Positions 28,476 through 52,234 of a DNA stretch of 64,000 nucleotides are shown here, in pieces. Every line of letters begins with the position of its first letter. Within the stretch, counting starts at the first letter, position 1. Source of the stretch: Sedimentisphaerales bacterium (GTDB lineage Bacteria; Planctomycetota; Phycisphaerae; Sedimentisphaerales; SM23-30); NCBI GenBank assembly GCA_963666285.1, contig OY762711.1, one strand, 5' to 3'. The notes below the pieces were generated by a model that had not been told where the DNA came from, made no database searches, and saw only the letters and a program-made list of their open reading frames with translations. The translations under genes were made by a program, and so were the position numbers.

Positions 28476-28771
28476 GAGCTATTTGCCTGTCCCGGCATAC
28501 AAACTCTTTTCTTCTCTGGCCTTCATTTCTATTATTTCAAAGATGCAAAAATTGTTTTAATAGCGACACGTGTTACATATATGTTATTTTCCTTAACTGA
28601 ACTACAAAATAGTTACTTTATTCTTTGGTTTTCCGAAATAATTGTAATAATATTTTTGAAATTATTGATTTTCTGTCATTTTTAGGCATATTGTTAATTG
28701 TAAGCAAATCATAGGGTTAGGGGAAAAATCGCTGTTATCAGTACTAAAAATATCGATATCTGCCGTGCTAA

Positions 28772-28787
28772 TGGCACGTAGATTGCA
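28772..28787 (+). promoter_or_regulatory. Sigma-54 (-24/-12) promoter of glutamine synthetase
   Basis: TGGCACG-TAGA-TTGCA matches the TGGCACG-N4-TTGCW consensus, ~215 bp upstream of the GS start. Confidence 0.85.
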
Positions 28788-29000
28788 CTAATTCCGGCAT
28801 GAAAGATTGGGGTACGTGCCCCAATTGTGGGATATTATGCCCTCGACAATTGAAAATTACGATTGTGCCTTAAAAATGACTGTTTCAAACCTGAAACTTG
28901 TTACTCCCCGGCGTTCTGGTTTTCAAACTAGAGGTGTATAGAAAATGTGAATATGTACAAGGGATATTGTACAAGAAAGAAAAAACAGGAGACTTTTACA

Positions 29001-31106: not shown

Positions 31107-31184
31107 TAGATATTTTAAGGTATTATTTACAAGTAAATAGTGTAAGGCAAAGAGTGACATATTGCGGCAGCTAAAAAAATAGTA

Positions 31185-31356
31185 TCGCCGAAAGGCGAAA
31201 CTGCAACTTTTCACTCTTAGTTCTTCACTCTTAACTTTTGATACGTATTAGGAATTATAGGTATTTGCTGAAAGAGTGGCGGTTTGCGTCAGCCTTTAAA
31301 ATAAGGTCGCTTGCGACACCTTCACTAATACCTGATACCTAGCTCCTAATACCTGA
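31185..31356. repeat. REP-like hairpin and heptad-repeat module
   Basis: TCGCC-gaaa-GGCGA hairpin, ttcactc repeats, (a)tacct repeats, and GCGTCAGCCTTTAAAATAAG-[hairpin]-ACACCT resembling 37524-37567. Confidence 0.55.
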
Positions 31357-31380
31357 TTTTGTATAATATCCCCCTTCATT

Positions 31381-31414
31381 AGAGGGCCGTTCCTTGTGAT
31401 CGGCTCTCTTTTTT
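31381..31414 (+). terminator. Rho-independent terminator after glnA
   Basis: AGAGGGCCG...CGGCTCTCT followed by a T tract. Confidence 0.7.
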
Positions 31415-31561
31415 ATGCGCTGTCACATTTACACTCTACTTACGCTGACCGCTTTTCCCTTTTATTTGTCATGATTTTAATATAAAATCTCTTCTCTTGA
31501 TTATTAGATCAGGGCGGTTGCCCAGGCTGACCAGCAATCAGTTTGAGTTTTTACTTACATA

Positions 31562-34372
31562 ATGATTTTGAAAAACAGGGGGCATGTTTTGAAAAAAAGT
31601 ATTTTTAATGTTGGTTCGTTACTGCTATTGTTCTTGTCTATATCTTTTCAGTGCAACCATCTCTTATCCAGTAACGTTGAATGTCAGTTGAAGGTCGATT
31701 CCCTAAAATGTGAATATCAGGTCAATCCGTTAGGGATTGATATCACAAATCCTCGCCTCAGCTGGACTATGCAATCTGATGCCCGATCACAGACCCAGTC
31801 CGCCTACCAGGTTATCGTTTCAACCAGTCTCGACTCTTTAACGGCTAGTAAAGCTGACCAGTGGAACAGCCGCAAAGTTCAATCGGGCAATTCCATCCAG
31901 GTTACTTATAGCGGTCCGGAACTTGCCCCTGAAACCCGTTATTATTGGCGCGTCCGTATCTGGGACCAGAACGATACACCCAGTGCCTGGAGCGAACCGG
32001 CCTGGTTCGAAACTGCTATTTTGCATCAGCATAACTGGCAGGCTAAATGGCTGAATGATGGCAAAACTAACCCGGCTGTCGAAGAGGATTTCTTTAAATT
32101 CGATCCGGCTCCATTATTCCGCAAGGATTTCACCCTGACCAAACCCGTCAGCCAGGCCCGTCTTTATATCACTGGCCTTGGCTATTATGAAGCTTCTCTA
32201 AACGGCAAACGCATCGGCGACCATCTCCTCGATCCCGGCTGGACCGACTTCTCCAAAAGGATTTATTACAGTACATACGACCTCACCGACCGGCTGACAA
32301 CAGGCGGCAATTGTCTAGGCGTCACACTTGGCAACGGCTGGTTTAACCCGCTCCCTCTACGCATGTGGGGGCATCTCAATATTAGAGAACACCTGACTGT
32401 CGGTCGCCCTCAATTCATCGCCCAGCTCAAAATCACTTACAAAGATGGCTCTGAGCAGCTGATCACCAGCGACACCGGCTGGAAGGTCACAGAAGGCCCA
32501 ATTATACGCAATAGCATCTACCTTGGCGAAATTTACGATGCTCGCAAGGAACTTGCCGCATGGAATATGCCCGGCTTTGACGATTCCGCCTGGCACAACG
32601 CTGCTCTGGCTGATTCGCCCGCTCCAATCCTCCAGGCCCAGCCGCTCCTTCCGATCAGATCCACTGCCGTTATTAAGCCTGTTAGCGTAACAGAGATCAA
32701 AGATGGTGTTTATATTGTCGATATGGGCTGCAATTTCGCCGGACTGGCATCTTTCAAATTTAATCTCAAAAAGTCCGCCATGGTTAAAATGCGATATGGC
32801 GAACTCCTATATAATGACGGCACATTGAACCCAATGACCAGTGTCTGCGGTCAGATCAAGGGCAAGCGGAACGACTCCCTCCAGGCCAATCCCGGCCTCG
32901 CCTGGCAGGAAGACATATATTTCGCCAAAGGCTCATCCCCGGAAATCTACACCCCGCGGTTTACTTTCCACGCCTTTCGCTATATCGAGATTACCGGGCT
33001 GCCCCAAAAACCCGAGCTCGATTCTATCACCGGCTACCGCTTAAATACAGACGTTACTCCTGTCGGCAGCTTTTCCTGCTCAAACGACCTTTTCAATTCC
33101 ATCCAGCAAATATGTCAGACATCTTTCCTCAGTAATATATTCAGTGTTCAGTCTGACTGCCCGCATCGCGAACGGTTCGGCTACGGCGGCGACCTGGTCA
33201 ATACCAATGAGGCCTTCATATACAATTATGATATGGCCAATTTCTATGCCAAGGCTGTTCAGGACTGGGACGACTGCAAGCTGGCCGACGGCATGCTCAC
33301 CGATACCGCTCCCTTCGTCGGCATCCAGTATTGCGGCGTAGGCTGGGCCATGGCACATCTACATACTCAGCTTGTCCTGTACCGCTATTATGGCGACCTT
33401 ACAATTCTTCAGCAGCAATATGATACCGCGGTCCGGTGGTTTGACCTCGTTATCAACAGCAATCCGGATTTCATCGTCAACCAGGGCCTGTCCGACCATG
33501 AAACTCTAACCGAAAATCCCGCTCCAACTCTGGTTACGCCTCTTTATTTTCAATGTGCCAATATGCTCGCACAAATCTCTGCAATACTCGGCAAAAACGA
33601 CAATCGAGACAAATACCTCACTCTCGCTGATAATATTATGACTGCCTATAACGGCAAATTCTTTGACACTGCTACCGGCAAATGCGGCTCCGGCACCCAA
33701 TCCAGCCAGTCTTTCGCTTTGTATTCTGATATTCTGCCTCAGGATTCTCAAAAAGCGGCATTTCAATACCTTCTCGATCGCATCAAAAAATGCGATAATC
33801 ATTTATCTACCGGCATTTTCGGCACAAACTACATGCTCGATATCCTCTCCCGCCAGGGCAGCGGCGAGCTCGCTTACACCATCGTCAACCAGCGAACATT
33901 TCCAGGATGGGGCCATATGCTCGAAAGCGGGGCAACCTCTCTATGGGAACACTGGCAGTTCAGCGACAATACCTACTCGCACAACCATCCGATGTTCGGC
34001 TCGGTCTCAAAATGGTTCTACAGCTCTCTCGGCGGCATAAAGCCTGATCCACAGGCCGTTGGCTTTGACAAAATTATTATCAACCCGCTCGTTCTAAAAC
34101 AGCTGCAATGGGTAAAATCCACCTACAACTCCGTCAGGGGGCCAATCACCTCGAACTGGCACAAATCTGATAATGAGATAACCTTCGATATTACTATCCC
34201 TGCCAATACTACTGCCACAGTATATCTGCCTTCCGATAAACTGCAAGCCATCAAAGAGGGCGGTAAACCAGTTACTGCCGTCAGTGATATCAAACTATCC
34301 ACCTGTAATAACGGCGTATCCGCCTGGAACATCGGTTCCGGCTCATACCACTTTACCATCCCGTGCAAATAG
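31562..34372 (+). CDS. Alpha-L-rhamnosidase, GH78 family (secreted)
   Basis: NPLGID..PRLSW, APLFRKDF, ITGLGYYE, SDCPHRERFGYGGD, GATSLWEHW, SHNHPMFGSV. Confidence 0.92.
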   Translation: MILKNRGHVLKKSIFNVGSLLLLFLSISFQCNHLLSSNVECQLKVDSLKCEYQVNPLGIDITNPRLSWTMQSDARSQTQSAYQVIVSTSLDSLTASKADQWNSRKVQSGNSIQVTYSGPELAPETRYYWRVRIWDQNDTPSAWSEPAWFETAILHQHNWQAKWLNDGKTNPAVEEDFFKFDPAPLFRKDFTLTKPVSQARLYITGLGYYEASLNGKRIGDHLLDPGWTDFSKRIYYSTYDLTDRLTTGGNCLGVTLGNGWFNPLPLRMWGHLNIREHLTVGRPQFIAQLKITYKDGSEQLITSDTGWKVTEGPIIRNSIYLGEIYDARKELAAWNMPGFDDSAWHNAALADSPAPILQAQPLLPIRSTAVIKPVSVTEIKDGVYIVDMGCNFAGLASFKFNLKKSAMVKMRYGELLYNDGTLNPMTSVCGQIKGKRNDSLQANPGLAWQEDIYFAKGSSPEIYTPRFTFHAFRYIEITGLPQKPELDSITGYRLNTDVTPVGSFSCSNDLFNSIQQICQTSFLSNIFSVQSDCPHRERFGYGGDLVNTNEAFIYNYDMANFYAKAVQDWDDCKLADGMLTDTAPFVGIQYCGVGWAMAHLHTQLVLYRYYGDLTILQQQYDTAVRWFDLVINSNPDFIVNQGLSDHETLTENPAPTLVTPLYFQCANMLAQISAILGKNDNRDKYLTLADNIMTAYNGKFFDTATGKCGSGTQSSQSFALYSDILPQDSQKAAFQYLLDRIKKCDNHLSTGIFGTNYMLDILSRQGSGELAYTIVNQRTFPGWGHMLESGATSLWEHWQFSDNTYSHNHPMFGSVSKWFYSSLGGIKPDPQAVGFDKIIINPLVLKQLQWVKSTYNSVRGPITSNWHKSDNEITFDITIPANTTATVYLPSDKLQAIKEGGKPVTAVSDIKLSTCNNGVSAWNIGSGSYHFTIPCK

Positions 34373-34710
34373 AGCAAGCAATATACAATATCCTACTCAT
34401 TGTATGACCGATTTTATCCTTTGGTTTCAATGAGCTTATAACTGCTGTATCCTTACCGCCCGCTGCTCGCTGCTGGCCGCTGATTGCCTGTCTATTAATT
34501 ACTTTTGATTTACTCTCAATTTTTGCTATCATAAGTGTGTTATTTTGGAAAATTGATTAATGGCCGGGGATGCTGACTTTCTTTATCTCTTTGGCCTTAA
34601 ATGGTTTACTTATAATATTTTAAGGTTGTGTTTCGTATTTGGTCTCAAAGTTGTTTTTTTACCTGAAACTTGAAACCTGGTCCCTGAACCCTTAAATTAG
34701 GAAAGAGATT

Positions 34711-37299
34711 ATGAAAAAGTCTGGTCTGTTTGTATTTTTATTGGTTCTATTTACTAGTTCACTCACCATGGCCGCCAACGGCGACCTCGGCGTTTCCAGT
34801 GGTGCCGATGGCTCCGAATCCGATCCCTTCCTCATCGAAGACTTTACCGACTTCCAGGCATTCTGCGCCGACACCGCTAAATGGGCTTCCGGCGTCCACA
34901 CCCGCCTCGAAACCGACCTCGACCTTGCCCCCAATCTCCCTGGCAGACAAATCTATACCCAGGCACCAATTGCAGGCGATACCGACTCCGATTACACCTT
35001 TGACGGCACAGCCTTTGCGGGCAGCTTCAATGGCAATAATCATGTGATTAAAAATCTGGAAATCAATGGAGCATACTATTGTGGACTATTCGGTAAAACA
35101 GAGTCAGGTTGTGAGATAACCAATCTTGGTTTAGACAATATCGCTATCACTGGCGATTATTATACCGGCGGTCTTTGTGGTGAAAATCATGGTACTATCT
35201 CCAACTGTTATGCAACTGGTTCGGTTTTGGGCAATCATTCTATCGGCGGTCTTTGTGGTGAAAATCAAGGTACTATCTCCAACTGTTATGCAACTGGTTC
35301 GGTTTCGGGTGATCATTCTATCGGCGGTCTTTGTGGTGAAAATCAAGGTACTATCTCCAACTGTTATGCAACTGGATCAGTTTCGGGTGGTAGTCGCTCA
35401 TATACTCTCGGTGGTTTCTGTGGGTATAATCCATCTGGTACTATTATCAACTGTTTTCATTATTTTTATGGTGGACCCGATAATGGCTTTAGTTCTCCTC
35501 TTGACGATAATGAGTTGCAGACTAAAGCTAGTTTCATTGGTTTTGATTTTTCTGGCGATTCATCTGACGGTACTGATGATTATTGGTCTATTGAGGCTGG
35601 TTATATGCCGAGACTTTCATGGCAAATTTCATCCGGTTTTGAACCTCCGTATTTATTAAACACTTTAGTAACTTCACTTCCTGGCACAGGCTACTCTAAT
35701 GATCCGTTTATTATTACTGACTATGATGATATTTTAGAATTTAGAAATAACAGTTCACTTCGTATCGGGTATTATAGTCTGGTAGCAGATATTGACCTGG
35801 TTGGTATTACATATCCAGATGCATTTATACCGGAATATTTTTTGGGAACATTACTTGGTAATGGTCATGTAATATCAAATCTGGCGATTGATGGAGAGTC
35901 AGGCCTTGGCTTTTTTAAGATAGTGTATGGTTCTGTAACCAATCTTGGTTTAGACAATATCGCTATCACTGGCGATTATTATACCGGCGGTCTTTGTGGT
36001 GAAAATTGGGGTACTATCTCCAACTGTTATTCAACTGGTGATGTTTCGGGTGGACATATTTCGAATTTTACCGGCGGTCTTTGTGGTGAAAATTGGGGTA
36101 CTATCTCCAACTGTTATTCAACTGGTGATGTTTCGGGTGGACATATTTCGAATTATACTGGCGGGCTTTGTGGTGAAAATAGAGGTTCTATCTCTAATTG
36201 TTATTCAACTGGCTGTGTTTCGAGTGATTATTATTCGTATTATATCGGTGGGCTTTGTGGTGAAAATAGCGGCACTATCTCTAACTGTTATTCAACTGGC
36301 AGTGTTACCGGTGAACGTACAACCTATTACCTGGGTGGACTGTGCGGGGAGAATACTGGCGTAATAACTCATTGTTATTCAACTGGCAGTATAATCGGTC
36401 ATGATAATTGTTATCAACTTGGCGGCATCTGTGGGAAAAATGGTACACGAAATTTAGAAGGGATAATTTCCTATTGTCATTTTACCGGTAGCGTAACTGG
36501 TGAATTAGATTGCGGCGGTCTTGGTGGCTTATGTGGGGTTATTTATTCTGGCATAATAACCAACTGTTATTCAACTGGCAGCGTAACAGGCGGATTGTAT
36601 TGTCGTTACATCGGCGGATTCTGCGGGCAAAAAGCTTCAATTGAATTTAATGGCTTTTGGAATAGGATTTCTAATTGCTATTCAACTGTGAATGTTAACT
36701 GTGGAGATTATAGTAGTTCTATAGGTGGTTTCTGTGGAGCGAGTGGTAGCGGCGCATTAAGCAATTGCTATTCTACTGGGAATGTTAACTGTGGAGATTA
36801 TAGTAGTTCTATAGGTGGTTTCTGTGGAGCGAATGGTAGCGGAGTATTAAGCAATAGCTATTCTATCGGCAGCGTATCAGGTGGAGTTGAATGTACCTAC
36901 CTCGACGGATTCTGCGGATACATGACAAGGTCGTCACATAGTGATACCACCCTCGGTGACATTAGTAATTGTTTCTGGGATAATGAAACTTCAGGTATTT
37001 CGACAAACAACCATTATTACGACAAAACCACCGCCGAGATGCAAACCCAATCTACCTTCACCGATGCCGGCTGGGACTTCAACGTCGAATCCGACAACGG
37101 CACAGACGACCTCTGGCATATGCCGTACAACGCAGCCGGTTACCCAATACTCTACTTCCAGCGTGACATCCCCGGCGACCTCTCCGGCTCCTATGGCATA
37201 AACCTCTCCGACTTCAGCGAATTGTCCAATGGCTGGATGATTGATTTTGAATTTGCTGATTTGGAAGAACTGGCAGAATATTGGCTGGAAGGTAAATAA
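34711..37299 (+). CDS. Secreted GLUG-motif repeat protein with dockerin-like C-terminus
   Basis: Signal peptide; many GGLCGEN.GTISNCY(A/S)TG.V repeats; TTAEMQTQSTFTDAGWDF; PGDLSGSYGINLSDF..L...W. Confidence 0.85.
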   Translation: MKKSGLFVFLLVLFTSSLTMAANGDLGVSSGADGSESDPFLIEDFTDFQAFCADTAKWASGVHTRLETDLDLAPNLPGRQIYTQAPIAGDTDSDYTFDGTAFAGSFNGNNHVIKNLEINGAYYCGLFGKTESGCEITNLGLDNIAITGDYYTGGLCGENHGTISNCYATGSVLGNHSIGGLCGENQGTISNCYATGSVSGDHSIGGLCGENQGTISNCYATGSVSGGSRSYTLGGFCGYNPSGTIINCFHYFYGGPDNGFSSPLDDNELQTKASFIGFDFSGDSSDGTDDYWSIEAGYMPRLSWQISSGFEPPYLLNTLVTSLPGTGYSNDPFIITDYDDILEFRNNSSLRIGYYSLVADIDLVGITYPDAFIPEYFLGTLLGNGHVISNLAIDGESGLGFFKIVYGSVTNLGLDNIAITGDYYTGGLCGENWGTISNCYSTGDVSGGHISNFTGGLCGENWGTISNCYSTGDVSGGHISNYTGGLCGENRGSISNCYSTGCVSSDYYSYYIGGLCGENSGTISNCYSTGSVTGERTTYYLGGLCGENTGVITHCYSTGSIIGHDNCYQLGGICGKNGTRNLEGIISYCHFTGSVTGELDCGGLGGLCGVIYSGIITNCYSTGSVTGGLYCRYIGGFCGQKASIEFNGFWNRISNCYSTVNVNCGDYSSSIGGFCGASGSGALSNCYSTGNVNCGDYSSSIGGFCGANGSGVLSNSYSIGSVSGGVECTYLDGFCGYMTRSSHSDTTLGDISNCFWDNETSGISTNNHYYDKTTAEMQTQSTFTDAGWDFNVESDNGTDDLWHMPYNAAGYPILYFQRDIPGDLSGSYGINLSDFSELSNGWMIDFEFADLEELAEYWLEGK

Positions 37300-37325
37300 T
37301 AGCCGAATCATTCAGTGCCTTTGAT

Positions 37326-37389
37326 AAATCGCCTAAAAGGGACTTACTGCAACGCTTTGAATTTAAACAAAATGTGAGACGATAGCGAA
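37326..37389 (+). mobile_element. Truncated MITE-like fragment abutting the large inverted element
   Basis: AAATCGCCTAAAAGGGACTT...GTGAGACGATAG matches the core of copies 5/6, then breaks off. Confidence 0.7.
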
Positions 37390-37995
37390 TTATTCCTGAT
37401 GTCAACGTACATCGGGGCACCGGAATTTTTCATTTTTAATTTAGCAAAGCTCACCACTCTTCTTATTTTTTAGATTTCCAGATTTCAGACAGATACTACA
37501 ATTTTGACATAAACTGTACTCACGCGTCAGCTTTAAAATAGTCGTCCCGATGTATATCGGGACACCTCCTTTACAATTTTTATTTTACCCTTTACACTTC
37601 AGATGCCGCGAAGCGGCATCTGGTTGGCCCAGTGGTGAAAACCAGGCGGATAGGCTCATGGTAAATGTCTGCCGTTATGGCTCCGTGGCCCGCCGCGCAC
37701 CCTCCGGTGGCCGCCGCGCTATCGCCGTGCGGTCTCCGTAGGTATGCCGTAAGTTAAGAAGAGCTCTTCTCGCCGCCGCGCTAATCCGTTGCCCCTCCGT
37801 AAGCCGCCGTTGCCCGTCGCGCTGGCTCAATAGCCCGCCGTCGGTCGGCGTTCGCCGGGACGAGCCGCCGTTTCTCTTTTTAACGCCGCACTGCCTCCGC
37901 GCTGCCTCCGCGATACCTCCGTACACCCGCCGCGAGGTCTCCGCAAGTCGTCAATGGTGTTCCGCTGCCCGCGGCAGGCTTTCGCGCGAAATTAT
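37385..37995 (-). repeat. Large inverted repeat, left copy (REP-like hairpins + helically phased CCKCCG array)
   Basis: Reverse complement of 41546-42145 with scattered substitutions; palindromes at 37544-63, 37600-22 and 37757-70. Confidence 0.92.
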
Positions 37996-38107
37996 ATTAA
38001 ATATCAGGTAAAAACACGATCAGATAATAATCAAAGTACAAAAAATGGAAATAACCATATTTGGCAGGCTCATAAAGGTGGTCAAAACGTAGGCCCAAAT
38101 AGAAATA

Positions 38108-39664
38108 TTACTCAGAAATTGATAATGCACCGGTCGGGCAGGATTCAGCCAGATCAGCAGCCAGTTCGGCAGGCAGTTCGCCAAGATCCATGCCAAGCGG
38201 AGCAACCACCCTGGTATCATAGCCCCGACAACTGAACGTAAGTGCCTTATCTGGATTAAAGTTAGCAGATATTTGTACGCATATGCCGCACTTTATGCAC
38301 TTGCCTGGCTCATAGATGAGCCTATTACTCCCGGCATACTCTATTGTATATTCCTTACGCTGAGAATGTTTGTACGCTGTCGGCGAAGCATCCAGTAAGC
38401 TGCTGTATTTACGCAACTTACAATTGTCAACATCACGACAGTCACAATGCAGACAATCTGCTGCGGTTGGTTTTTCGCTGCTCTTTTCGCTCTTGCTATC
38501 CAGCATATCACGCAGCCGGGCTATCCGAAACAGCTCATCTTCGGTAAACTTGCCTATTCGAGTATTGAACGGTTTGGGCTCACCAGTTACAGGAACACCC
38601 GCCAGAAACTGGCAAATACTCACCGCCGCATATCGGCCCTGACCAACCGCACGAACTGCCATCCGCCCCGCCTGGTTGATTCCACCTGCGGTAAACACAT
38701 TCTTAAACTCTTCATTAACAGATACTTGCAAGGCAAGCTTATCAATTACCGGTTTTTCAGATTCTCCGGTAACCAGCCCCCATTGAACAAAAAACTCATC
38801 ACTTTTAGGGCCGGTTGCCAGCAGTACCGCATCATATTTACCCGTAAGCTCTGTCAGCGTTAAGTCTTTACCAAGCTCACTTTGTGAATATTCAGCTCCC
38901 ATCTCAAACGGCATAGCAGTTTCAGCCTTCAGAATATCAGCCGGCAGCTTCTCAGACTCTATCTGGAGCAGACCGCCGCCTGGTTCGGCTTGTTTATCAA
39001 ATACCGTAGCCTTATGCCCTGCAAGGGTTAAGTGCCACGCAGCAGACAGACCGGCAGGACCGGCACCGACAATTGACACACTCTTGCCCGTACTGGCAGC
39101 CGGTTTTGGTACAGCCATATTATTGATAATATAATAGCCGACATCTCCTTTAAGCTCACAGATCGGTATGGACCTACCTGTTTGCTTATGTCGGCATATT
39201 TTTTCGCATGGTGCCGGGCATATCGCCGCCAGAATTCCCGGTATCGGTATCGTCTGCCGCACAATTTCCGCGGCTCTCGGCATGTCACCGGCACTTATCG
39301 CTCGCAGCATATTGGGAATGTCCAGATCAGCCGGACACGCTACCTGACAAGGCCCCAGGCAGTCGCCCAGATGCTCGCTCAGCAGCAGTTCTAAAGCCTT
39401 ACGACGCAAGTGGATAACTTCCTCGGTCTCACTGTCGATTCGCATTTCATGTGTAACCTCGGTCGCACAGGAAGGAGCAAATCCGGCCCGGCCATGAATT
39501 TTCACCAGGCAGACCATACAGGTAGTATTCGGCTTGCACTTTTTGTTATAGCACAATACCGGAATCTCGATCCCGGCTTCTTTTGCAGCCTGATAAATCG
39601 TTTTACCAGCTTCAGTTACGATCTGTTTGCCGTCAATAGTAATTGTTATCTGCCTGCTGTCCAT
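38108..39664 (-). CDS. Fe-S flavoprotein: 2Fe-2S domain + GltD/DPD-like 4Fe-4S/FAD domain + C-terminal 4Fe-4S dicluster
   Basis: IPVLC..CMVCLV..PSC; CLGPCQVACP; ICPAPCEKIC; IVGAGPAGL; CLHCDC; CIKCGICV; CPTGAL. Confidence 0.8.
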   Translation of the reverse strand: MDSRQITITIDGKQIVTEAGKTIYQAAKEAGIEIPVLCYNKKCKPNTTCMVCLVKIHGRAGFAPSCATEVTHEMRIDSETEEVIHLRRKALELLLSEHLGDCLGPCQVACPADLDIPNMLRAISAGDMPRAAEIVRQTIPIPGILAAICPAPCEKICRHKQTGRSIPICELKGDVGYYIINNMAVPKPAASTGKSVSIVGAGPAGLSAAWHLTLAGHKATVFDKQAEPGGGLLQIESEKLPADILKAETAMPFEMGAEYSQSELGKDLTLTELTGKYDAVLLATGPKSDEFFVQWGLVTGESEKPVIDKLALQVSVNEEFKNVFTAGGINQAGRMAVRAVGQGRYAAVSICQFLAGVPVTGEPKPFNTRIGKFTEDELFRIARLRDMLDSKSEKSSEKPTAADCLHCDCRDVDNCKLRKYSSLLDASPTAYKHSQRKEYTIEYAGSNRLIYEPGKCIKCGICVQISANFNPDKALTFSCRGYDTRVVAPLGMDLGELPAELAADLAESCPTGALSISE

Positions 39665-39817
39665 AAGTAATATAATATAGTGTTATTACAGGATTTATAC
39701 CAGAAATTTGTCGATAATAATAAAGTTGAAATTATTTTGCTTTGAATAATGAATAACTAGTGATATTATTATGTAACCGTATTTAATGGACTTACAATCA
39801 AAAACCTACCTGAAAAC

Positions 39818-40999
39818 ATGGATGCAGCTCAAGCGGACAACCTTTCATATATCTATATAGATTCCAACGAAGCAATAGCCGAAGTATGTGAAAAAATGCA
39901 GCATGCAGATGCCGTTGCTATCGATATCGAATGTGACAGTCTATACCATTATTATGAAAAAGTTTGCCTGCTTCAACTTTCATTTTCCGGTGTAAACTAT
40001 TTAATAGACACACTTTGTGGAATTGGCGTCGGTCAGGTACTGGATGTCTTATCACGTCAGAAGATCATCGTGCACTGCGGTGATTATGATTTCCGGATGC
40101 TGCGAAAATGCTATGGCTTTTTGCCCAGGGGCGAGGTTTTTGATTCCTGGATAGCTGCCCGGCTATTGGGATTTGAACGGGTTTCACTGTCAGATCTGGT
40201 TAGGACCATGCTGGATGTTGACCTGCCGAAAAGCTCACAGAAATCCGACTGGTCGCGCAGACCCTTGTCAGATAAGCAGATAGAATACGCAGTAAGAGAC
40301 ACCTGCTACCTGGAACAGCTGGCAGGCAAGCTATCAGATACGCTGGAGGCTAAGGGCCGCAGCCAATGGAACGAGCAAGGCGTCCAAGAGATGCTCCAGC
40401 GAGCCAGTTTTACCGAAGAGCAGGAAAACAATAACCCAGATAAAGTATGGCGTATAAAGGGTTTAAATAAATTATCCACCCGTCAGCTGGAATATGTCCG
40501 GCAGTTGTGGTTCTGGCGTGACATACTGGCCAGGAAGATGGACCGGCCACACTTTAAGGTGATGTCGAATTCAATGATAATAGATATCGCTATCTGGGCC
40601 TCCAAACACCATCACCATAGTAAACCGGTTACTGCCATCAAAGGCGTTAGAATGCCTAAGACCCTTAATGGAAAGCGTTTAGAAAGTTTTACCCGGGCAC
40701 TGAACCGAGGCCATAAAACAGCAGATGCCAAGCTGCCGCCAAGAAGACTGCCGGTGGATAACAGCGATTATGATGAGAATTATGCACTGCTGGACGTCGA
40801 ACCATATCAGAAGGCATGCTGCCAGGTAGCCGAGAAGCTTGGAATTGAGCCGCCAATACTGGTGACTCGCGCTCAATGGTATAAGATTCTGATCGAAATG
40901 CCGGGCGATATAGATGAGATTTTACAGAAAGCCGAGATACTTCCCTGGAAATATGAGTATATCAAGGAAATGCTCAACATGGTCGAATCCGGTAGCTAA
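39818..40999 (+). CDS. rnd: Ribonuclease D (DEDDy exonuclease + HRDC)
   Basis: AIDIECDS..YYEKVCLLQ, HCGDYDF, FDSWIAARLLG, SDWSRRPLS..QIEYAVRD, WRDILARKMDRP. Confidence 0.88.
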   Translation: MDAAQADNLSYIYIDSNEAIAEVCEKMQHADAVAIDIECDSLYHYYEKVCLLQLSFSGVNYLIDTLCGIGVGQVLDVLSRQKIIVHCGDYDFRMLRKCYGFLPRGEVFDSWIAARLLGFERVSLSDLVRTMLDVDLPKSSQKSDWSRRPLSDKQIEYAVRDTCYLEQLAGKLSDTLEAKGRSQWNEQGVQEMLQRASFTEEQENNNPDKVWRIKGLNKLSTRQLEYVRQLWFWRDILARKMDRPHFKVMSNSMIIDIAIWASKHHHHSKPVTAIKGVRMPKTLNGKRLESFTRALNRGHKTADAKLPPRRLPVDNSDYDENYALLDVEPYQKACCQVAEKLGIEPPILVTRAQWYKILIEMPGDIDEILQKAEILPWKYEYIKEMLNMVESGS

Positions 41000-41030
41000 G
41001 TATATATAATAATGGAGCTTATGAGTTTTT

Positions 41031-41435
41031 ATGCACTTTAATAAAGGCAGACAAGACAAAGATGAAGGTCTGAATTTCACCGCTATGATAGATGTGGTGT
41101 TTCTGCTGCTGATATTCTTTATGTGTACAGCTTCGGTGCAGCTGCCCGAAAGTGAGATCAAGGCCGCCATTCCCGGCAGCTCCAATACCGTACCGGAGTT
41201 TCAGCCGGTGCGAATCGATATAAATACTGTTGGAGAAAATATTTCTGTAACTTGTGACGGCCGGCTCTGTGAAAATGACAGCACATTGAGCAGCCATATA
41301 TCCGCCCGTAGCCAGATAGCCGATCTGCCGGTTATCTTTTCTATTGATGACAATGTTGAGTTTGACGATATCGTGCATGTAATGGACATATGCCGACAAT
41401 CCGGCCTCAAAAAGCTTGCCATACCTACTAACTAG
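41031..41435 (+). CDS. exbD: Biopolymer transport protein ExbD/TolR
   Basis: LNFTAMIDVVFLLLIFFM; D..VEFDDIVHVMD.C..SG. Confidence 0.88.
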   Translation: MHFNKGRQDKDEGLNFTAMIDVVFLLLIFFMCTASVQLPESEIKAAIPGSSNTVPEFQPVRIDINTVGENISVTCDGRLCENDSTLSSHISARSQIADLPVIFSIDDNVEFDDIVHVMDICRQSGLKKLAIPTN

Positions 41436-41545
41436 CCCTATCCACCTGCTTTGGTACAACCAATTTTAAGCAAAACTGGTACTTCCATTTCTGTTTTTTG
41501 TCAGGTCGTTTTTACTTTCATGTTATCCCCTGAGGAATTGTGCAG

Positions 41546-42145
41546 TAATACGCGTGAAAACTTGCCGCGGGCAGCGAAACTCCATCGGCTACCTGCGGAG
41601 ACCTCGCGGCGGGTGTACGGAGGTATCGCGGCGGCAAGCGGCGGCAGCGCGGCGTTAAAAAGAGAAACGGCGGCTCGTCCCGGCGAACGTCGATCAACGG
41701 CGGGCTATTGAGACAGCGCGACGGTTAGCGGCGGCTTACGGAGGCCCAACGGATTAGCGCGGCGGCGAGAAGAGCTCTTCTTACCTTACGGCATACCTAC
41801 GGAGGCTACGCGGCGATAGTACGGCGGCCAACGGAGGGTACGCGGCGGGCCACGGAGCCATAACGGCGAATATTCACTCTGTGCCAATCCGCCGGATTTT
41901 CACCACTGGGCTGACCAGATGCCGCTCCGCGGCATCTGAAGTGTAAAGGGTAAAATAAAAAGAGTAAAGGAGGTGTCCCGATGTACATCGGGACGACTTA
42001 TTTTAAAGCTGACGCGTGAGTAAATTTTATATCAAAATTGCAGTATCTGTCTGAAATCTGAAAATTAAGAGGAGTGGTGAGCTACGCTAAATTAAAAATG
42101 AAAAATTAAGGTGTCCTGATGTACGTTGACCAGGAATAATTCGCA
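41546..42145 (+). repeat. Large inverted repeat, right copy (helically phased CGGMGG array + REP-like hairpins)
   Basis: Reverse complement of 37385-37995; palindromes at 41768-81, 41916-38 and 41975-94. Confidence 0.92.
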
Positions 42146-42960
42146 TTTGCGGACAACTTGTTTTAAACGGCTACGCCTTATAAGAGAACCGCTGATGAAC
42201 ACCGATGCACACCGATAAAGAAAAGAAATGGAAAGCGATTGGCAGATGAGCAGTAGAACAGGAAAGTTGAAGTTCAAGTAATTTTGAAATGATTTATTTC
42301 TCGCAAAGACCGCGAAGCTCGCAAAGGATTTGAGCTGTGAATAATGAAATGGTAAATACTGACTAATACTGTCTGGGCAAAAAACGGTTGTAATTTTTTG
42401 GTAATTGGAATATGTTTTGGGGAGTGGGTATTAATTTGCGGGCAGATTGTTTTAAACGGCTACGCCTTATAAGAGAACCACTGATAAACACCGATGCACA
42501 CCGATAAAGAAAAGAAATGGAAAGCGATTGGCAGATGAGCAGTAGAGCAGGAAAAGGAAAGTTGAAGTTCAAGTAATTTTGAAATGATTTATCTCTCGCA
42601 GAGACCGCGAAGCTCGCAAAGGAATTGAGCTGTGAATAATGAAATGGTAAATACTGACTAATACTGTCAGGGCAAAAAACGGTTGTAATTTTTTGGTAAT
42701 TGGAATATGTTTTGGGGAGTGGGTATTAATATGCTGACAGTTTGTTTTAAGCGGCTACGCCTTATAAGCGAACCACTGATAAACACCGATGCACACCGAT
42801 AAAGAAAGAAAAAATGGAAATCGATTGGCAGATGAGCAGTAGAACAGGAAAAAGAAAGTTGAAGTTCAAGTAATTTTGAAATGATTTATCTCTTGCAGAG
42901 GATTTGAGCTGTAAATAATAAAACAGTAAATATTGGCTAATACTGTCTGTCAAAAAACGG
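42145..42960. repeat. Non-coding tandem repeat, ~290-bp unit x ~2.8
   Basis: TTGTTTTAA(A/G)CGGCTACGCCTTATAAG recurs at 42158, 42447 and 42742 with colinear downstream sequence. Confidence 0.93.
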
Positions 42961-43097
42961 TCGTATAAAAATGACAAATACCGGAGGCACTTGCGTCTTC
43001 ACCTTTGGCAACGACGCGACGGAGATGTGCCTATTTAAACCGCCTGTTGACGTAAATACCATTCCTGCAATTTTGCTGATGTTCGCAGATAATAATA

Positions 43098-44537
43098 TTA
43101 TTTTTGCCATAGCCAGTCAGCTGCAAATTGGGCGAGGTCGGCCAGGTCGATATTGTTATCGTTGTTGCTGTCGTGACGGTGGCGGTGTTCCATAGTGAAA
43201 GTATAATTACCGCCGGCCTGACCGTCATTGTCACCGTCGATTGAGTTGCCGGTTGCTGAACTTACAACGGAGTCTTTTACAATGATAGTGTATTTATCAT
43301 TGAGTAGAGTTTCGCCGAAAGCAATGATAAGAAATGAGCTACCGCTGCCGGTAACGCTAAGCGGAATGGTTTCGCCGGTTTCGTTAGTGATTTCAATATC
43401 ACTGTTGTTGAACTCTATGATATCGTTGAAGAACAGGGTTGCAGAATCTATACCGTTCTCGTTGGTATATACACCATCAGTTGGATTTTTCGGTTCGCGC
43501 ATGACAAATTCGGGGCCAATAGTTACAGCGTCAGCTTTATAGATATGCCATATGCCGTTAGCATCTGATACATACATATGCATACTGTCGTCGCTGACAG
43601 TTATTGACTCAATATTATAAAACCCCTTGGCAAATTCACTATCGGAACCATCCGGTTCAACTGCTTGAACCGCATTAGTATAGCGTTCGGTGACATATAA
43701 TTGTTGGCCAAACGAACCGCCATTGCTAAAGGCGAGGTCACGATATTGTCGACTGTTTGTATGGACAGGTGAATTTAACTCAGACCATACCCATTCAGTT
43801 TCAATATTATATAATTGATAGATTACACATTTTTGGTCATGGTTATAATCCCAATCTACCATAGTCAATCTTCCATTATATAACCCAGTTGAGTCGGTTT
43901 TCATACCCCAAATATCTAGGTCTGTTCTTCCTATTGGAAGTGAATTTTGAGATATCTTAGTCATGTTGAAACTAGTGTCTGCAATGTACAAGCTAGAACC
44001 ACCAGTAACATGTCCATCAACGAGAATTATATTAGCATTAGATGATTTATCGATAACAAAATCAAATATGCAACATAAATAATCAGAACTGTCTCCAAGA
44101 GCAGATTCAACTGTAAATTGATTCATTCCAGAAAGACGAATTAAATTAGTCCTATTTGTTTCATTATTATTATCGCTGTCGTATTGTACTGATATGAAAA
44201 GCTCACTACTAAACTGACCGGTCCAATCAAAACGAATTGAACGAACATCGCTAACATTCGGGTAGCCACTTTTAATTCCTATTGATGTTACAATTCCATT
44301 AGATATCCTAAAAACTTTAAGTATCCCATTATCAACACCAGCAGCAACTACACCTGTGCCATAAGCTGGATTTCTAACTGCTTCCAGTCTAGGTGTTTGG
44401 CCGTCCAGAGCAGATATGATATGTGTTACGACAAAATTTGTATCAGGATTGCCATCTGGTCCAACTACATATGGGTCAGCAAAAACTAAAGCAGGCAAGC
44501 AGAGAGTGATTGTTAAACTTAAAATAGTAGACTTCAT
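43098..44537 (-). CDS. Secreted protein (possible beta-propeller region, Ig-like domain, dockerin-like tail)
   Basis: MKSTILSL signal; 'YTIIVKDSV...GNSIDGDNDGQAGGNYTF'; 'DSNNDNNIDLADLAQFAADWL'. Confidence 0.7.
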   Translation of the reverse strand: MKSTILSLTITLCLPALVFADPYVVGPDGNPDTNFVVTHIISALDGQTPRLEAVRNPAYGTGVVAAGVDNGILKVFRISNGIVTSIGIKSGYPNVSDVRSIRFDWTGQFSSELFISVQYDSDNNNETNRTNLIRLSGMNQFTVESALGDSSDYLCCIFDFVIDKSSNANIILVDGHVTGGSSLYIADTSFNMTKISQNSLPIGRTDLDIWGMKTDSTGLYNGRLTMVDWDYNHDQKCVIYQLYNIETEWVWSELNSPVHTNSRQYRDLAFSNGGSFGQQLYVTERYTNAVQAVEPDGSDSEFAKGFYNIESITVSDDSMHMYVSDANGIWHIYKADAVTIGPEFVMREPKNPTDGVYTNENGIDSATLFFNDIIEFNNSDIEITNETGETIPLSVTGSGSSFLIIAFGETLLNDKYTIIVKDSVVSSATGNSIDGDNDGQAGGNYTFTMEHRHRHDSNNDNNIDLADLAQFAADWLWQK

Positions 44538-45061
44538 TATATTGATCCTCAAATAAAATTTATCTTTATTCGTAACTTGAAGGTGAATTACAAGCGGGTA
44601 TAAAAGCAATTTCCAGAGGTCACCTAAATAATAAGCAACCATCAAAATTTACGTCCTATAACTGTGTATATGATAGCTGTCATTTTTTGAAAAAACAAGT
44701 ATTTGTAAATGATTTCATGATGGGAGCAGGGTTTGAGGTGGTTGTGTGTTTGGGTTATGTTTATTTTTTATAAGTATTTATGTGGATTTTGGTAATATGT
44801 TTTTGTGTAAAATTTATGCAATGGGTGAAAAAATGTAATTTATGCGGTTTTGGCGGGGTATAAGTAGTTGTGTAAGTAAAAGCGTTAAAAAATGTGATAA
44901 AAGATATGAGTGGCAACGGAGGTGAGACGATAGTAGTTGGGAGGTTTTACCGGTGTAGTTATTTTTATTGAGAATTACGATAATTGCCTGTATATTAAGG
45001 GTTTGTTGAAAGTTTTTATGCCGGAATGAAGGCGAGATTCAGAAAGATAAGGGTTTGAAAC

Positions 45062-47428
45062 TTGTACAAACGGTCGATTAACATATTGCTGCTGTTGCTA
45101 TTTTATGCCGGGATGGTTATGGGCCAGGTGGTGGTCAATGAAGTTGAGGAGAGCAAGATAGAGTCCGGTGTGGAAGTGTCGGTCAGCAGGTTAACCGTGG
45201 AAGAGCAGGTAGAGCAGTTGATACTGGATGCCTTTGGCGATACGGACGGTTATGTCGAGCTGCTTGATAAGGCGCAGGCTTTGGCGAAGGATATGCCCGA
45301 AGGAAAGTCAGGATTTTTCGAAGTGTATATTAACCAGAGCAAGCTTCGGATAGCGGCGTCCAAGGTTAGTGTAAGGCTGGAGAATGGCGAAGAGGGAGTA
45401 GAATTGTCGATGCAGGCGAGGCTGCTGGCGAAAGGGCTGGCGGAGTCTGCCGAACAGATGGAAGAGTTGAAAGCCGGGCTGAATAAGAAGCTTGAAGATA
45501 TCAAGATGTATAACCGTAAGCAGCGAGGGCGGATGCTGGGGTTGATAAGTCGCTGCGAATATAGTAACGGCTGGGTGTATTATTCGATATCGACAATAGC
45601 AGGAAACGGTTTGAAGGAGCATTTCTTAAGCGAGGCGGAGAAGATCTTTACGCGTTTTCTGGCGAAGGACTATCAGGCAGTGAATCTGCCGGTAATGGTG
45701 AACTGCCTGTATGGTAAGGGTCTGTGCCTGAGAGATTCCGGCAGGTATTATGATCTGCTGGTGATGCTGGATACGATGTCGGTGAGTGATTCCAATGCGG
45801 TAAAGTTTGCACGATTGCGGCTGGCGGCTTCGGTGAAGCTGAGTTTGAGTGTCGAGATATTGAGGGTGGTGCAGGAGTATTTTGAAGATGATGCAATTGA
45901 TAAGCGTCTGACGGGTGAGGAGCTGGAGATGCTGGTGAATTGTATCGAGGCGGGCGTCAGGCTGCTGGACAGGGATTTGCCGATAAAGATGAAAATGTCT
46001 TTGCGAAAGCAGCTGGTTAAGGCGATAGACCGTACAGAAGGTTACGGTCAGTACTGGCAGGACCGGGTGAGCGATTTACTGGGTGATCTGGATTTGAAGA
46101 GTCCTTATGTTAAGCTGCTGCAGGCTTACGATGAATCGGCTGACGGTCGAGACTACGAAAAGATATTCAGCCTGGCAGATGATGGTCTGAAGTTATGTGA
46201 TGAAAGTGAGCCGGAAAAGAAGAGTGAATTTTTGTATTTGAAGGTAATATCAAGCTGGAACTCGAAGAAATTTGACGATGCGTGGGGTTCGGCATATCTA
46301 TTTATGGAAGAGTTTCCCGGTAATGTTCATAGTGAGCAGGTGGCCGGGATATTATGCCAGGTTTCGATAAAGATAGTAGAGCAGGACCGGGCCAGGTTCA
46401 AGGAAGTTTACGGTAAATTGGCCGGTATGCTGGATAAGGGGCAGGTTGATAGCGAGGAGTATATGTGGACGAGCGGGTGTCTGCTAATTAATGCCGGGGA
46501 ATACAAGGAAGGGTATGAGTATTTCCACCAGGAGGAAGTGGTTGAAGTGCTGGAGGTAAAGAGCTATTACGGCATGCTGCTGGCGGTATTGCCGATGATG
46601 AGGGAGGGTGAGCTAACGGACCGCGAGGCAGTTGACAGTGTTGAGGAGTGCTGCAGGGAGTTTACCGCGAGTAATGGAAGTTTTGTGCAGACCAGCCACT
46701 TTGTCGAGGCGGCAGATATAATATGCGAGATAGCCAGTGAGCTTTTGGGCAGAGAGAAGTACGATCTTGCGGGGCGAATACTGGGTCTGGTAGAGTTTAT
46801 GCCGCATATTCGGGGTGAAATATTCGCAAAATATATGGGAGTAAATATATCTTATCGACTGGCGATGGGCGGCAGGCTGGATGAATTTATCGATGAGATA
46901 ACAAGTAAGAATCTGCATAATGATCCTAAGATATTTAACCTGCTGGTGAGTGAATCACGCAAACTTGAGATGGCGGCCGAGAAAGAAAATGAGCTGTTGA
47001 TACGGATATACCGGCTGCTGCTGAGCAGTAAGCTGCTGGATGATAAGAATGCGGTGGCGGTACGAATATACCTGGCACAATGTTATTACGGCAGCGGCGA
47101 TTACGTTCATTTTTTGAACCTGGCGGAGTCGATTGTAAAAAGTTACCCGATGCATGTTACTGTGGTTTTTTATCGCCAGATGGCGGTATCGTATCGAGAG
47201 GAGGGAGATTATGTCCGTTCGGCAGAATACTGGAATATGGTTTTACAGAATAGTGTCGAGATGAAAGAAGGCTGGAAAGAGGCTTTGTATAATAAGATTT
47301 TCTGTTATAATAAGGGCGGCGAGCGGGAGAAAGCAAGCCAGATCATGAATCTGGCGTTATTACGCAGGCCAGAGCTATTGGAGGAAGAGCGGTTTAAGAC
47401 ATTGAAGGGCGAGATGGGTAATGAGTAA
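45062..47428 (+). CDS. Large secreted alpha-helical (TPR-like) hypothetical protein
   Basis: Signal peptide; TPR-like helices (CLYGKGLCL, YLAQCYYGSGDY, WKEALYNKIFCY). Confidence 0.65.
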   Translation: MYKRSINILLLLLFYAGMVMGQVVVNEVEESKIESGVEVSVSRLTVEEQVEQLILDAFGDTDGYVELLDKAQALAKDMPEGKSGFFEVYINQSKLRIAASKVSVRLENGEEGVELSMQARLLAKGLAESAEQMEELKAGLNKKLEDIKMYNRKQRGRMLGLISRCEYSNGWVYYSISTIAGNGLKEHFLSEAEKIFTRFLAKDYQAVNLPVMVNCLYGKGLCLRDSGRYYDLLVMLDTMSVSDSNAVKFARLRLAASVKLSLSVEILRVVQEYFEDDAIDKRLTGEELEMLVNCIEAGVRLLDRDLPIKMKMSLRKQLVKAIDRTEGYGQYWQDRVSDLLGDLDLKSPYVKLLQAYDESADGRDYEKIFSLADDGLKLCDESEPEKKSEFLYLKVISSWNSKKFDDAWGSAYLFMEEFPGNVHSEQVAGILCQVSIKIVEQDRARFKEVYGKLAGMLDKGQVDSEEYMWTSGCLLINAGEYKEGYEYFHQEEVVEVLEVKSYYGMLLAVLPMMREGELTDREAVDSVEECCREFTASNGSFVQTSHFVEAADIICEIASELLGREKYDLAGRILGLVEFMPHIRGEIFAKYMGVNISYRLAMGGRLDEFIDEITSKNLHNDPKIFNLLVSESRKLEMAAEKENELLIRIYRLLLSSKLLDDKNAVAVRIYLAQCYYGSGDYVHFLNLAESIVKSYPMHVTVVFYRQMAVSYREEGDYVRSAEYWNMVLQNSVEMKEGWKEALYNKIFCYNKGGEREKASQIMNLALLRRPELLEEERFKTLKGEMGNE

Positions 47429-47540
47429 TTGATGCCGGTTATGATCAGTGTTTTTTTGCATGGATAAAGGCAAAAGTTTGAATTTATTTGTGAAAATATT
47501 AATCAGGAGAGCGAAGTTTTAAGTTTTCGGAAATTGCATT

Positions 47541-50459: not shown

Positions 50460-51273
50460 TTTTGAGTGAATACTTAGTTTTGGCGAATCCGGTATTATAC
50501 CTAAACCATGCGAAGGCAGCGGCAATAAGAATTAAGGGCCAAAACTGCCTGATAAATATATAGAGGGAATTGATTCTTTCATAACCTGCTAGAAACGGGA
50601 GTGCCGCAATAAGAATGAGTGTGATAATCCTGGCCGTTTTGCAGGTGTATATATGCGGCCTGAGATTGGGGTGTTTTTCTATGATAATCCAGGCCAGGTA
50701 TGCCGCGAGTATGCCGATGGCGGCCCCAGCGATAGTGTCGGAAGGGTAATGTTTGGATGCGAGAATTCTCAGTAGTGCGATGATAAATGCGGATGAATGC
50801 AGGACAGTTAGAGCGGCGAACCGGAATGCGGCGATGGAGCTGTTGGCTATGTATGGTGTAAGAGCAGTTGCGACGGCGTATGCTGTTGCTGTATCGCCGG
50901 AAGGGAAGGAAGATAACTGTCTGTCAAAGTGATGTTCTTTTTCAGGCTGGGCGGTAACAGCGATTTGGAATTCCGGTCGAGGTCTGGCGATAAAATATTT
51001 AGCCGGGTAAACAAAAGGGAAGATAAGCGGCATTGCGATAATGGCGACAAGAACCGGTTTTACCTGTCGAGTGGTAATGAGCCAGATAAGCAGAAGCCAT
51101 ATTGGTACCCATGCTTTTCCGAGTTGGCGGAATGCGTTTATCCAATGGTTAGTGCAAATGTTGGGCCGATATTTAAAAAGGAAAAAATAGACCTTGTCAT
51201 CCAGGAAGAAATAGCTGGCAGTAGTAAGTAGAGCCAGAGCAGATATAATAATGATTATGATATTACGTTTCAT
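50437..51273 (-). CDS. PAP2-family membrane phosphatase
   Basis: KYFIARPRP, SFPSGD, RILASKHYPSD. Confidence 0.85.
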   Translation of the reverse strand: MKRNIIIIIISALALLTTASYFFLDDKVYFFLFKYRPNICTNHWINAFRQLGKAWVPIWLLLIWLITTRQVKPVLVAIIAMPLIFPFVYPAKYFIARPRPEFQIAVTAQPEKEHHFDRQLSSFPSGDTATAYAVATALTPYIANSSIAAFRFAALTVLHSSAFIIALLRILASKHYPSDTIAGAAIGILAAYLAWIIIEKHPNLRPHIYTCKTARIITLILIAALPFLAGYERINSLYIFIRQFWPLILIAAAFAWFRYNTGFAKTKYSLKINFLKSS

Positions 51274-51399
51274 TACAGCAGTTTTTCTATTTTTATCGTC
51301 AATTCGATTCTACATAAAATAAAACAGGCATCAAGTTAAAATCCTGTTAGTCCTATTTTTGCTTGTCTGATAAATAATTTAGGTTATTATTTGTATTAT

Positions 51400-52206: not shown

Positions 52207-52234
52207 TGAAGAGCTGGTTTAGAATATAGCAGTA

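Follow-up and report, generated by a model that had tools for sequence, protein, structure and literature searches.

Among the closest described systems, Bartonella carries out run-off replication from a phage-derived origin that lies beside its own helicase gene and works in both directions, as reported (PMC2697382). The gyrase motif is described as a 130-bp site, symmetric about the cut, with two 47-bp arms of period 10.75 (PMC6379681). At the ends of IS607-family elements TnpA forms a filament on four phased 9-bp motifs (PMC6188088), and direct repeats of the intergenic heptamer TAACTGA have been described (PMC4679880). Here we analyse a 64,000-nucleotide stretch (the window) within the 6.15-Mb chromosome contig (C1) of a Sedimentisphaerales bacterium (genome G000). 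A sequence-only reading of the window had picked out two inverted copies of an array in which CGG recurs once per helical turn around a 14-bp palindrome, AGAAGAGCTCTTCT. A genome-wide check revealed 84 such arrays on the chromosome, together with polar composition domains that were not visible to that reading. We found that most arrays mark the start of such a domain, tens of kilobases long; the arrays are real, genome-wide and tied to a polar mutational regime.

We found that all 37 motif positions given for the two window arrays were exact (19 of 19 CGG in the right copy and 18 of 18 CCG in the left), as were the positions of both palindromes. The two copies are indeed inverted: they are the arms (37401-37988 and 41551-42130) of an inverted repeat of about 600-730 bp, roughly 88% alike, which encloses an Fe-S flavoprotein gene, an RNase D-like gene and exbD. 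The inner 3708 bp showed zero differences in contigs from the public runs X1 and X2, which are perhaps the source data; contig depths in X1 varied between 7 and 21 and do not measure copy number. Helical phasing also held, since power in the 9.5-11.5 band exceeded that of 2000 of 2000 dinucleotide shuffles in each copy and was equalled by 2 of 5000 random placements. The single best period across a whole copy was 10.2-10.25 because the three blocks slip in phase; inside single blocks the listed positions give 10.3-11.0. The features of the pair are as follows.

37401..37988, minus strand: left inverted-repeat arm with array, anchor and hairpin/heptamer mosaic, reading outward (repeat alignment).
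37668..37988, minus strand: left phased RCGGM array, long class, three blocks (position check and profile scan).
37757..37770, no strand: AGAAGAGCTCTTCT dyad between blocks, left copy (position check).
37632..37670, minus strand: spacer of about 40 bp from the last CGG to the anchor; the family carries phased T-tracts there (family GC profile).
37618..37631, minus strand: left anchor, TGG-N4-ACCAGAT, to which the CGGs are phase-locked (phase test).
37543..37622, minus strand: two REP-like GC-rich hairpins in a dispersed modular mosaic 3' of the anchor.
41452..41487, plus strand: two upstream anchor-like sites, TGGTACAACCA and TGGTACTTCCA, 455 and 430 bp before the downstream anchor.
41551..41870, plus strand: right phased RCGGM array, long class (position check and profile scan).
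41768..41781, no strand: AGAAGAGCTCTTCT dyad, right copy (position check).
41868..41906, plus strand: right spacer from the last CGG to the anchor.
41907..41920, plus strand: right anchor, TGGGCTGACCAGAT.
41916..42130, plus strand: hairpin/heptamer mosaic, with hairpins at 41916-41938 and 41974-41995.

Across the chromosome, CGG[AC] chains at helical steps formed 28 clusters of at least six motifs. Control scans gave no such cluster for four other spacings and at most four for nine other four-letter motifs; these motif and step controls are the valid null, since a reversed genome keeps the phase of the arrays. A profile scan then returned 98 loci, of which 84 scored at least 20; a few are probably false, for example one in a glycine-rich gene. 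Array lengths cluster near 93, 154 and 300 bp, with 7-30 motifs per array, and the short arrays span about nine helical slots (92-94 bp). The arrays are strand-specific (CGG 1253 vs CCG 95). The claim that substitutions fall mainly in the spacers was not significant for the window pair (motifs 8/95 vs spacers 18/113, P=0.14); over the whole family, though, neighbouring-unit spacers are only 34% alike vs 31% for random pairs. Because steps of 10 bp (197) and 11 bp (228) are mixed and the spacers are no more alike than random, we conclude that these are phased motifs and not tandem copies.

A second feature, overlooked by the earlier reading, is the anchor TGG-N4-ACCA, which lies 3' of the array within 800 nt in 67 of 84 cases (background 9%) and within 160 nt in 37 (background 1.8%). 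In most anchored arrays the last CGG is 42 or 52 bp before TGG-N4-ACCA(GA). At 23 non-redundant loci the CGGs hold one phase relative to the anchor at a period of 10.5 (0/5000 nulls), and T-tracts in the intervening spacer are in phase across the family. We show that array, T-tract spacer of about 40 bp and TGG-N4-ACCA anchor make up one unit. The palindrome, present as described in the window, is perfect in just 3 of 12 long copies, while its 10-bp core AAGAGCTCTT is retained in 8 of the 12; no dyad of this type was seen in the short or medium arrays inspected. The relevant dyad is probably the anchor and not AGAAGAGCTCTTCT. A further anchor lies 167-171 bp upstream (about 16 turns) in five short arrays and 412-430 bp upstream in four long ones. 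The dyad shape of the anchor is compatible with a GntR/FadR operator, whose consensus we take to be TGGT-N3-ACCA at regulated promoters. The genome has 11 GntR matches, but both window anchors lie between convergent gene ends.

The arrays are distributed over both strands (43 of 84 on the leading strand) and spaced somewhat evenly (75 loci, CV [coefficient of variation] 0.73 vs 0.90, P ~0.02). Six pairs of neighbours are divergent and 3.2-4.4 kb apart, where 0.4 were expected (0/20,000 draws). All six close opposite-strand pairs are divergent, and in four of the six the partners are mutual best matches. The window pair is one of these arrangements. It is not a single centromere-like unit: it accounts for 2 of 84 arrays, and relative to the flank the genes inside it still stand in the ancestral order. 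No neighbour gene was shared among the 30 arrays listed, and words resembling parS occurred near arrays in 2 of 6 cases only. The medium-class element, with about 28-30 copies (for example G000:C1 712900-714100), has about 480 conserved bp with a boxA-like word at the 5' edge, on the CCG strand. It also comprises the array and a mosaic that varies, and after these a second, weaker array together with an anchor 500-700 bp on.

To describe composition around the arrays we used residual GC skew, that is, skew after gene-strand, codon-position and replichore means had been subtracted. On the CGG strand it stood at about +0.10 from 1 to 15 kb downstream, had dropped to +0.06 at 15-30 kb and was still +0.02 at 40-60 kb; beyond 4 kb upstream it was about zero or slightly negative, and leading and lagging arrays gave equal profiles. 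Using coding DNA only, we found 0.096 downstream vs -0.014 upstream, with downstream exceeding upstream at 73 of 84 arrays and 51 of 57 singles. This difference of 0.110 compares with 0.019 +/- 0.007 for G-rich intergenic controls (maximum 0.044 in 2000 draws). At fourfold sites around 66 singles, G excess was 0 at -8 kb, 0.05 at -2.5 kb and 0.15 just upstream, then decayed smoothly to 0.10 at 10-15 kb and 0.03 at 40-50 kb downstream. The excess is highest at the array; upstream it dies away within about 3 kb, downstream only over 40-60 kb.

The change in bases differs from that of the main replichore. Skew switches to G over C at the arrays, and T falls in the domains where the main replichore raises T on the leading strand. 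Genes co-oriented with the array gain G by 0.10-0.13 and lose T by 0.09, opposite-strand genes mirror this change, and twofold sites in domains shift A>G and C>T. GC-biased conversion was rejected as the source of the skew because conversion would raise C, yet C falls. The conserved gene panE has G at 0.53 vs 0.07-0.25 in congeners, and amino-acid use follows, Glu making up 6.8% in co-oriented vs 5.4% in counter-oriented genes. Many segmented domains are 35-43 kb long; segmentation of the skew stretches is fragmentary, and the domain likelihood scores, having been trained on domains, are descriptive only. Two domains meet in the window.

41600..64000, plus strand: right polar domain, plus strand G-rich at silent sites, segmented to about window position 80,000.
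25400..41600, minus strand: left polar domain, minus strand G-rich.

In the right domain the TPR (tetratricopeptide repeat) gene at 45062 has plus-strand G 0.48 and C 0.16; in the left, the rhamnosidase-like gene at 31562 has plus-strand C 0.48 and G 0.13. As a side observation on the main replichore, the word GGCAGGG is polar with it (256 vs 38), as a KOPS-like word would be, and the skew extremes of the chromosome (5.742 and 2.698 Mb) lie far from the dnaA genes at 6.148 and 1.186 Mb.

The short upstream tail and the long downstream decay would fit a polar stop for a resecting helicase-nuclease, Chi-like or a protein roadblock: degradation that starts at breaks downstream would stop at the array or a little beyond it, and error-prone repair synthesis would restart there on the CGG strand. 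In the six divergent pairs the housekeeping genes inside would then be shielded on either side. Orientation along the direction of replication is typical of Chi sites. The arrays lack it, as their near-equal division between strands shows, and AGCGG is near-balanced across the replichores (2073 vs 1928). One-ended fork breaks need a single orientation and here both work equally, and helical phase is needless for single-strand recognition. We consider this explanation distinctly unlikely.

A transcript-level cause was also weighed, in which the arrays launch or protect very long transcripts through antitermination or Rho avoidance and the skew stems from transcription-linked mutation or selection. 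The word near the arrays that we take to be boxA-like has 18 of its 22 genomic occurrences there, on the opposite strand, and IS (insertion sequence) elements as well as 8 of the 9 four-helix-bundle genes above cut-off are co-oriented within segmented domains. Domain genes, however, are not aligned (57.7k vs 63.6k fourfold sites), opposite-strand genes shift as well, and T is the main loss, not C. Folding was no better than in shuffles on either strand (z +1.05 and -0.10), and the arrays had no Rfam match. Of all the explanations considered we give this one the least credence.

Arrays also occur inside genes. In panE a 93-bp in-frame array insert is absent from all 3 congeners, and the codons before it have been recoded so that four in-phase RCGG motifs are written in. 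An Fe-S gene carries an in-frame array insert that is absent from all 4 relatives. The inserts encode Gly/Ala/Asn-rich stretches of about 31 aa in panE (L078:2156-3175) and about 36 aa in the 4Fe-4S gene (L077:2794-3474), with the frames open. The proposal that the array is a platform for protein along one face of the helix gains indirect support from this recoding, as well as from the degenerate spacers, the 10.5-bp steps, the phase-lock to the anchor and the phased T-tracts.

We compared the window pair with a congener, G003, which served for synteny and domain comparison. There the Fe-S gene, rnd, an exbD-like ORF (open reading frame) and the TPR gene have the same order and orientation, and exbD abuts the TPR gene. 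These last two are separated in G000 by 3.6 kb that hold an array, a hairpin/heptamer mosaic and a cargo gene. The region is rearranged relative to the window in another genome, G001.

38108..39664, minus strand: Fe-S/FAD oxidoreductase gene of the inner segment, neighbour of rnd in G003.
39818..40999, plus strand: RNase D-like gene (3'-5' exonuclease and HRDC) of the inner segment.
41031..41435, plus strand: ExbD gene; in G003 the ExbD-like ORF abuts the TPR gene that starts here at 45062.
41436..45061, no strand: 3.6-kb stretch missing in G003, with array, mosaic, 295-bp tandem units and a gene for 515 aa without a Pfam match.

Each window array points away from the inner genes, towards a variable region of its own. 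The G003 synteny ruled out that the arrays are the ends of a single mobile unit, composite transposon or MITE (miniature inverted-repeat transposable element) around these genes. The same synteny speaks against an invertible segment; contigs from four runs gave no readable inversion joint, although short contigs across dispersed repeats cannot exclude one. Within the stretch missing in G003, 42145-42960 holds three tandem units of about 290-295 bp made of 9/10-mer repeats, a type that flanks GxxExxY genes elsewhere. On the left side of the window a second dispersed intergenic repeat with the core AAATCGCCTAAAAGGG, 50-140 bp long, follows gene ends (12062, 15838, 16425, 20970, 22654, 27304 and 37276).

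We then asked how far the arrays and the domains extend to other genomes. A search of the genome and its relatives, which the sequence-only reading had suggested, gave many copies in G000 and no DNA homologue in any of 30 relatives. The strict array pattern matched 40 times in G000 and at most 3 times in each of 300 genomes of the phylum. In metagenomes the anchor-plus-array pattern matched 3 loci, none an array. With a relaxed pattern, 120 genomes of the order gave mostly CACGGA-type 10-mers, and a species-genome scan gave at least 118 loci in many phyla, most of them 10-bp tandem repeats, near-perfect and sharing the core. Among the 118 outside matches listed, no anchor lies 35-60 nt after the array. 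These loci (L223-L340) share an ACGG(A/C)G core, some with an inverted counterpart nearby (L224, L302); one, L316, lies directly before a gene that we presume to be of a GxxExxY-like family.

The domain signature is present in G003 and is stronger there, in two-way, N-shaped domains of 100-200 kb. Its skew switches near 715k, 822k, 1929k and 2267k (L097-L136; G003:C1:500001-900000 and 1900001-2300000), a multi-origin-like profile; intergenic repeats follow the domain strand and no array was seen at the switches. Skew switches also occur in G068 and G063 (100-200 kb sampled each; G068 is 88% complete), and there is little switching in G001, G025, G055, G088 and G017 (100-400 kb sampled). One switch in G068 (L190:2000, C12, ~342k) is very sharp: between a catalase-like gene and its neighbour the plus strand turns, over 400 bp, from C 0.45 to G 0.70, and no CGG array is present. 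A literature search, mostly of freely readable papers, found no account of such arrays or domains and nothing linking short intergenic repeats to polar mutational domains.

These comparisons bear on whether the arrays are product rather than cause. Some other directional process would make the domains, and the arrays would be degenerate members of the widespread intergenic 10-mer or 7-mer repeats, formed or accumulated at the places where this process acts most strongly and spread as MITE-like passengers. Tandem repeats with an ACGGMG core in many phyla, the domains of G003 that lack arrays, the dispersed family of about 28-30 medium arrays at 80-90% identity and the peak of G excess at the array itself all suit this view. 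However, the spacers are not tandem copies and the steps mix 10 and 11 bp, unrelated loci hold a single phase to the anchor, several arrays have no homologue elsewhere in G000, and panE codons were recoded into phase. The outside matches listed also lack the anchor, and G000 has no GxxExxY gene. Such an origin for the arrays seems unlikely to us, though it is the alternative we take most seriously.

Along the lines of the sequence-only reading, the arrays could be strong gyrase sites, or sites wrapped by nucleoid proteins, with a role in organising the chromosome, and the skew could then be a side effect of cleavage and repair there. A GC phase near 10.5-10.7 recalls the gyrase motif, whose arms have a period of 10.75 bp, REP-like hairpins adjoin as in BIME-2, and the fairly even spacing of arrays and the two anchors 167-171 bp apart in five short arrays would agree. 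However, the gyrase motif is symmetric about the cut, whereas the arrays are polar and carry CGG on one strand; gyrase recognises shape and not a fixed trinucleotide, and a symmetric site alone would not explain a one-way mutational domain. The array motif was found in 1 of 301 genomes, and a conserved enzyme would not require it. Taken together this leaves the explanation quite improbable.

Mobile elements and repeats follow the orientation of the domains. An IS family that we take to be IS3-like has 7 co-oriented copies, 2 opposite and 0 outside domains, and two presumably IS110-like families have 8/1/0 and 4/0/0. Copies of these families have inserted into the hairpin mosaics that directly follow arrays on the downstream side, and nearly all of them face the same way (G000:C1 342.3k, 423k, 781.5k, 4654.7k and others). 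Of 93 intergenic heptamer arrays, 46 are co-oriented, 2 opposite, 4 far, 39 intermediate and 2 unassigned. Slippage ahead of hairpins was unsupported as their source, hairpins being 3' of 19 of the 93 and 5' of 13.

The genome carries an intact-looking Mu-like prophage of 37.6 kb (L177:1785 to L178:19337, that is, G000:C1:5279284-5316836; see also L179-L181); it shows a 5-bp target duplication, and its end sites, GATGGCCAA, are repeated. G003 has an orthologue at the same site upstream of mraZ (38-93% aa identity), which suggests long vertical inheritance. Three more prophages with HK97-type portals, two of them closely related, lie on C1 at 965-1000k, 2111-2143k and 2154-2184k, and contigs C2-C4 are three 65-kb phage contigs with host-type secreted-protein genes. 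The Mu-like prophage was considered as a driver of the domains because G000 and G003 share one insertion site, and was rejected: G068 and G063 have domains without a Mu-like transposase, and G055 shows the opposite in the 200 kb sampled.

Prophages bring in another explanation, that the arrays mimic phage pac sites. The phased motifs would be wrapped by a terminase ring, and some 40 kb of DNA downstream would be packaged, which would serve transduction or gene transfer. It would account for the nine or so helical slots of the short arrays and for the many domains of 35-43 kb, and several prophages are at hand, the Mu-like one at a shared site. Against it, the three phage contigs carry no arrays (one lone anchor-like word) and neither do the Mu-like ends, the ends of the three other prophages not being inspected. 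The distribution of the Mu-like transposase relative to domains in G068, G063 and G055 does not match, the decay is smooth with no headful step, and packaged duplex DNA has no obvious strand bias. We judge packaging very improbable.

The reading we prefer, tentatively and at somewhat less than an even chance, is that the arrays are cis-acting start platforms for directional, error-prone re-synthesis of one strand. A protein would bind the anchor and oligomerise, or wrap DNA, along the phased CGGs. A 3' end would then arise at or just upstream of the array, from a nick with some 3'-5' trimming or from an RNA primer, and a polymerase would extend the CGG strand over tens of kb, with the normal correction lacking. 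Misinsertion of dG:T, dT:G and (8-oxo)dG:A is established polymerase chemistry, and such misinsertions in the nascent strand would be expected to leave the one-strand shifts A>G, C>T and T>G as their traces. The opened DNA would be a target for IS elements and slippage repeats, which would enter it in a single orientation. Synthesis through the array would copy the array itself, which would explain both its spread and its gain inside genes. Divergent pairs, as in the window, would be two-way versions, and overall the arrays would be dispersed, secondary, run-off origins. DinB- and UmuC-like genes and two DnaA are present in G000, and likewise in relatives.

Stated in full, this proposal is held more loosely, as a possibility well short of even. 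About 75 dispersed, protein-wrapped, self-copying start sites may direct re-synthesis of one strand over tens of kb by a mutagenic pathway distinct from normal replication. These sites may define hypervariable zones and offer the first sequence handle on a strand-biased patchwork of domains that orients intergenic 7-mers and 10-mers.

Several results weigh against re-synthesis from the arrays. Of 226 segmented stretches, only 74 have an array within 4 kb of their start, and a clear G excess is lacking at 18 of 84 arrays. Where no anchor is near, the G excess at arrays is as high or higher (median 0.15, n=17, vs 0.09, n=67; P=0.035). The rise 2-3 kb upstream is not what one fixed nick would give. 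Repeated genes and the medium element hold few private changes, and these lack the predicted spectrum. No CGG arrays were found in the two 400-kb stretches of G003 scanned (stricter scans; a periodicity scan was too noisy), and therefore arrays are not needed for such domains generally. G000 has no match to TrwC, MobP relaxase, Rep_trans, IS91 transposase or coupling protein (PF08751, PF03432, PF02486, PF04986 and PF02534; MobH, MobC, MobQ and MobV were not searched), nor an IS607 TnpA over the cut-off or a GxxExxY nuclease. The evidence is all compositional and comes from a single genome.

Strand bias in bacteria is usually explained by two replichores and transcription. Here a defined cis-element predicts where about one third of the chromosome enters a different, one-strand mutational regime, one strong enough to alter amino-acid use. 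This makes it testable whether bacteria have many secondary initiation sites, and likewise where intergenic heptamers and decamers come from and what orients them. Anchor and array together are a ready bait for finding the binding protein.

How the element compares with known systems can now be set out. Plasmid centromeres (parC, tubC) are single loci beside parR or tubR and motor genes, unlike the 84 dispersed copies here. Array neighbours in the window are housekeeping or secreted-protein genes, and no genome-wide ParR/TubR search was run. As at iteron origins, phased direct repeats adjoin an AT-rich stretch, here the T-tract spacer. At an oriT or rolling-circle origin, one-strand, polar, distance-decaying synthesis would start from a protein-wrapped site beside a hairpin; in G000, however, the search of five families found neither a relaxase or Rep nor a coupling protein.

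IS607 ends share short phased direct repeats some tens of bp from a terminus, which nucleate a filament there (PMC6188088), but an array has 7-30 motifs where an IS607 end has 4, the arrays do not bound a single element, and G000 has no IS607 TnpA over the cut-off. Mu SGS (strong gyrase site) and BIME-2 likewise combine helically phased GC with REP-like hairpins dispersed between genes (PMC6379681). The arrays, with steps of 10 and 11 bp and blocks of 10.3-11.0, have a GC period near 10.75, but the gyrase motif is symmetric and degenerate, whereas the arrays combine a fixed trinucleotide on one strand with an anchor, and their polarity extends for tens of kb. Heptamer and 10-mer repeats are strand-biased and intergenic too, and heptamer arrays stand right beside CGG arrays in a shared orientation; they are near-perfect tandem copies, unlike arrays with unrelated spacers, 10/11 steps and an anchor. 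The Bartonella run-off origin is likewise a secondary start; it drives replication of a long, plastic part of the chromosome, and a gradient extends outward from it (PMC2697382). It is, however, one two-way origin with a helicase gene, compared with about 75 mostly one-way sites and no adjacent initiator here, and its evidence is amplification where ours is a mutational domain. The array resembles an iteron or filament-nucleation site and acts like a run-off origin, but it lacks a defining trait of most families compared.

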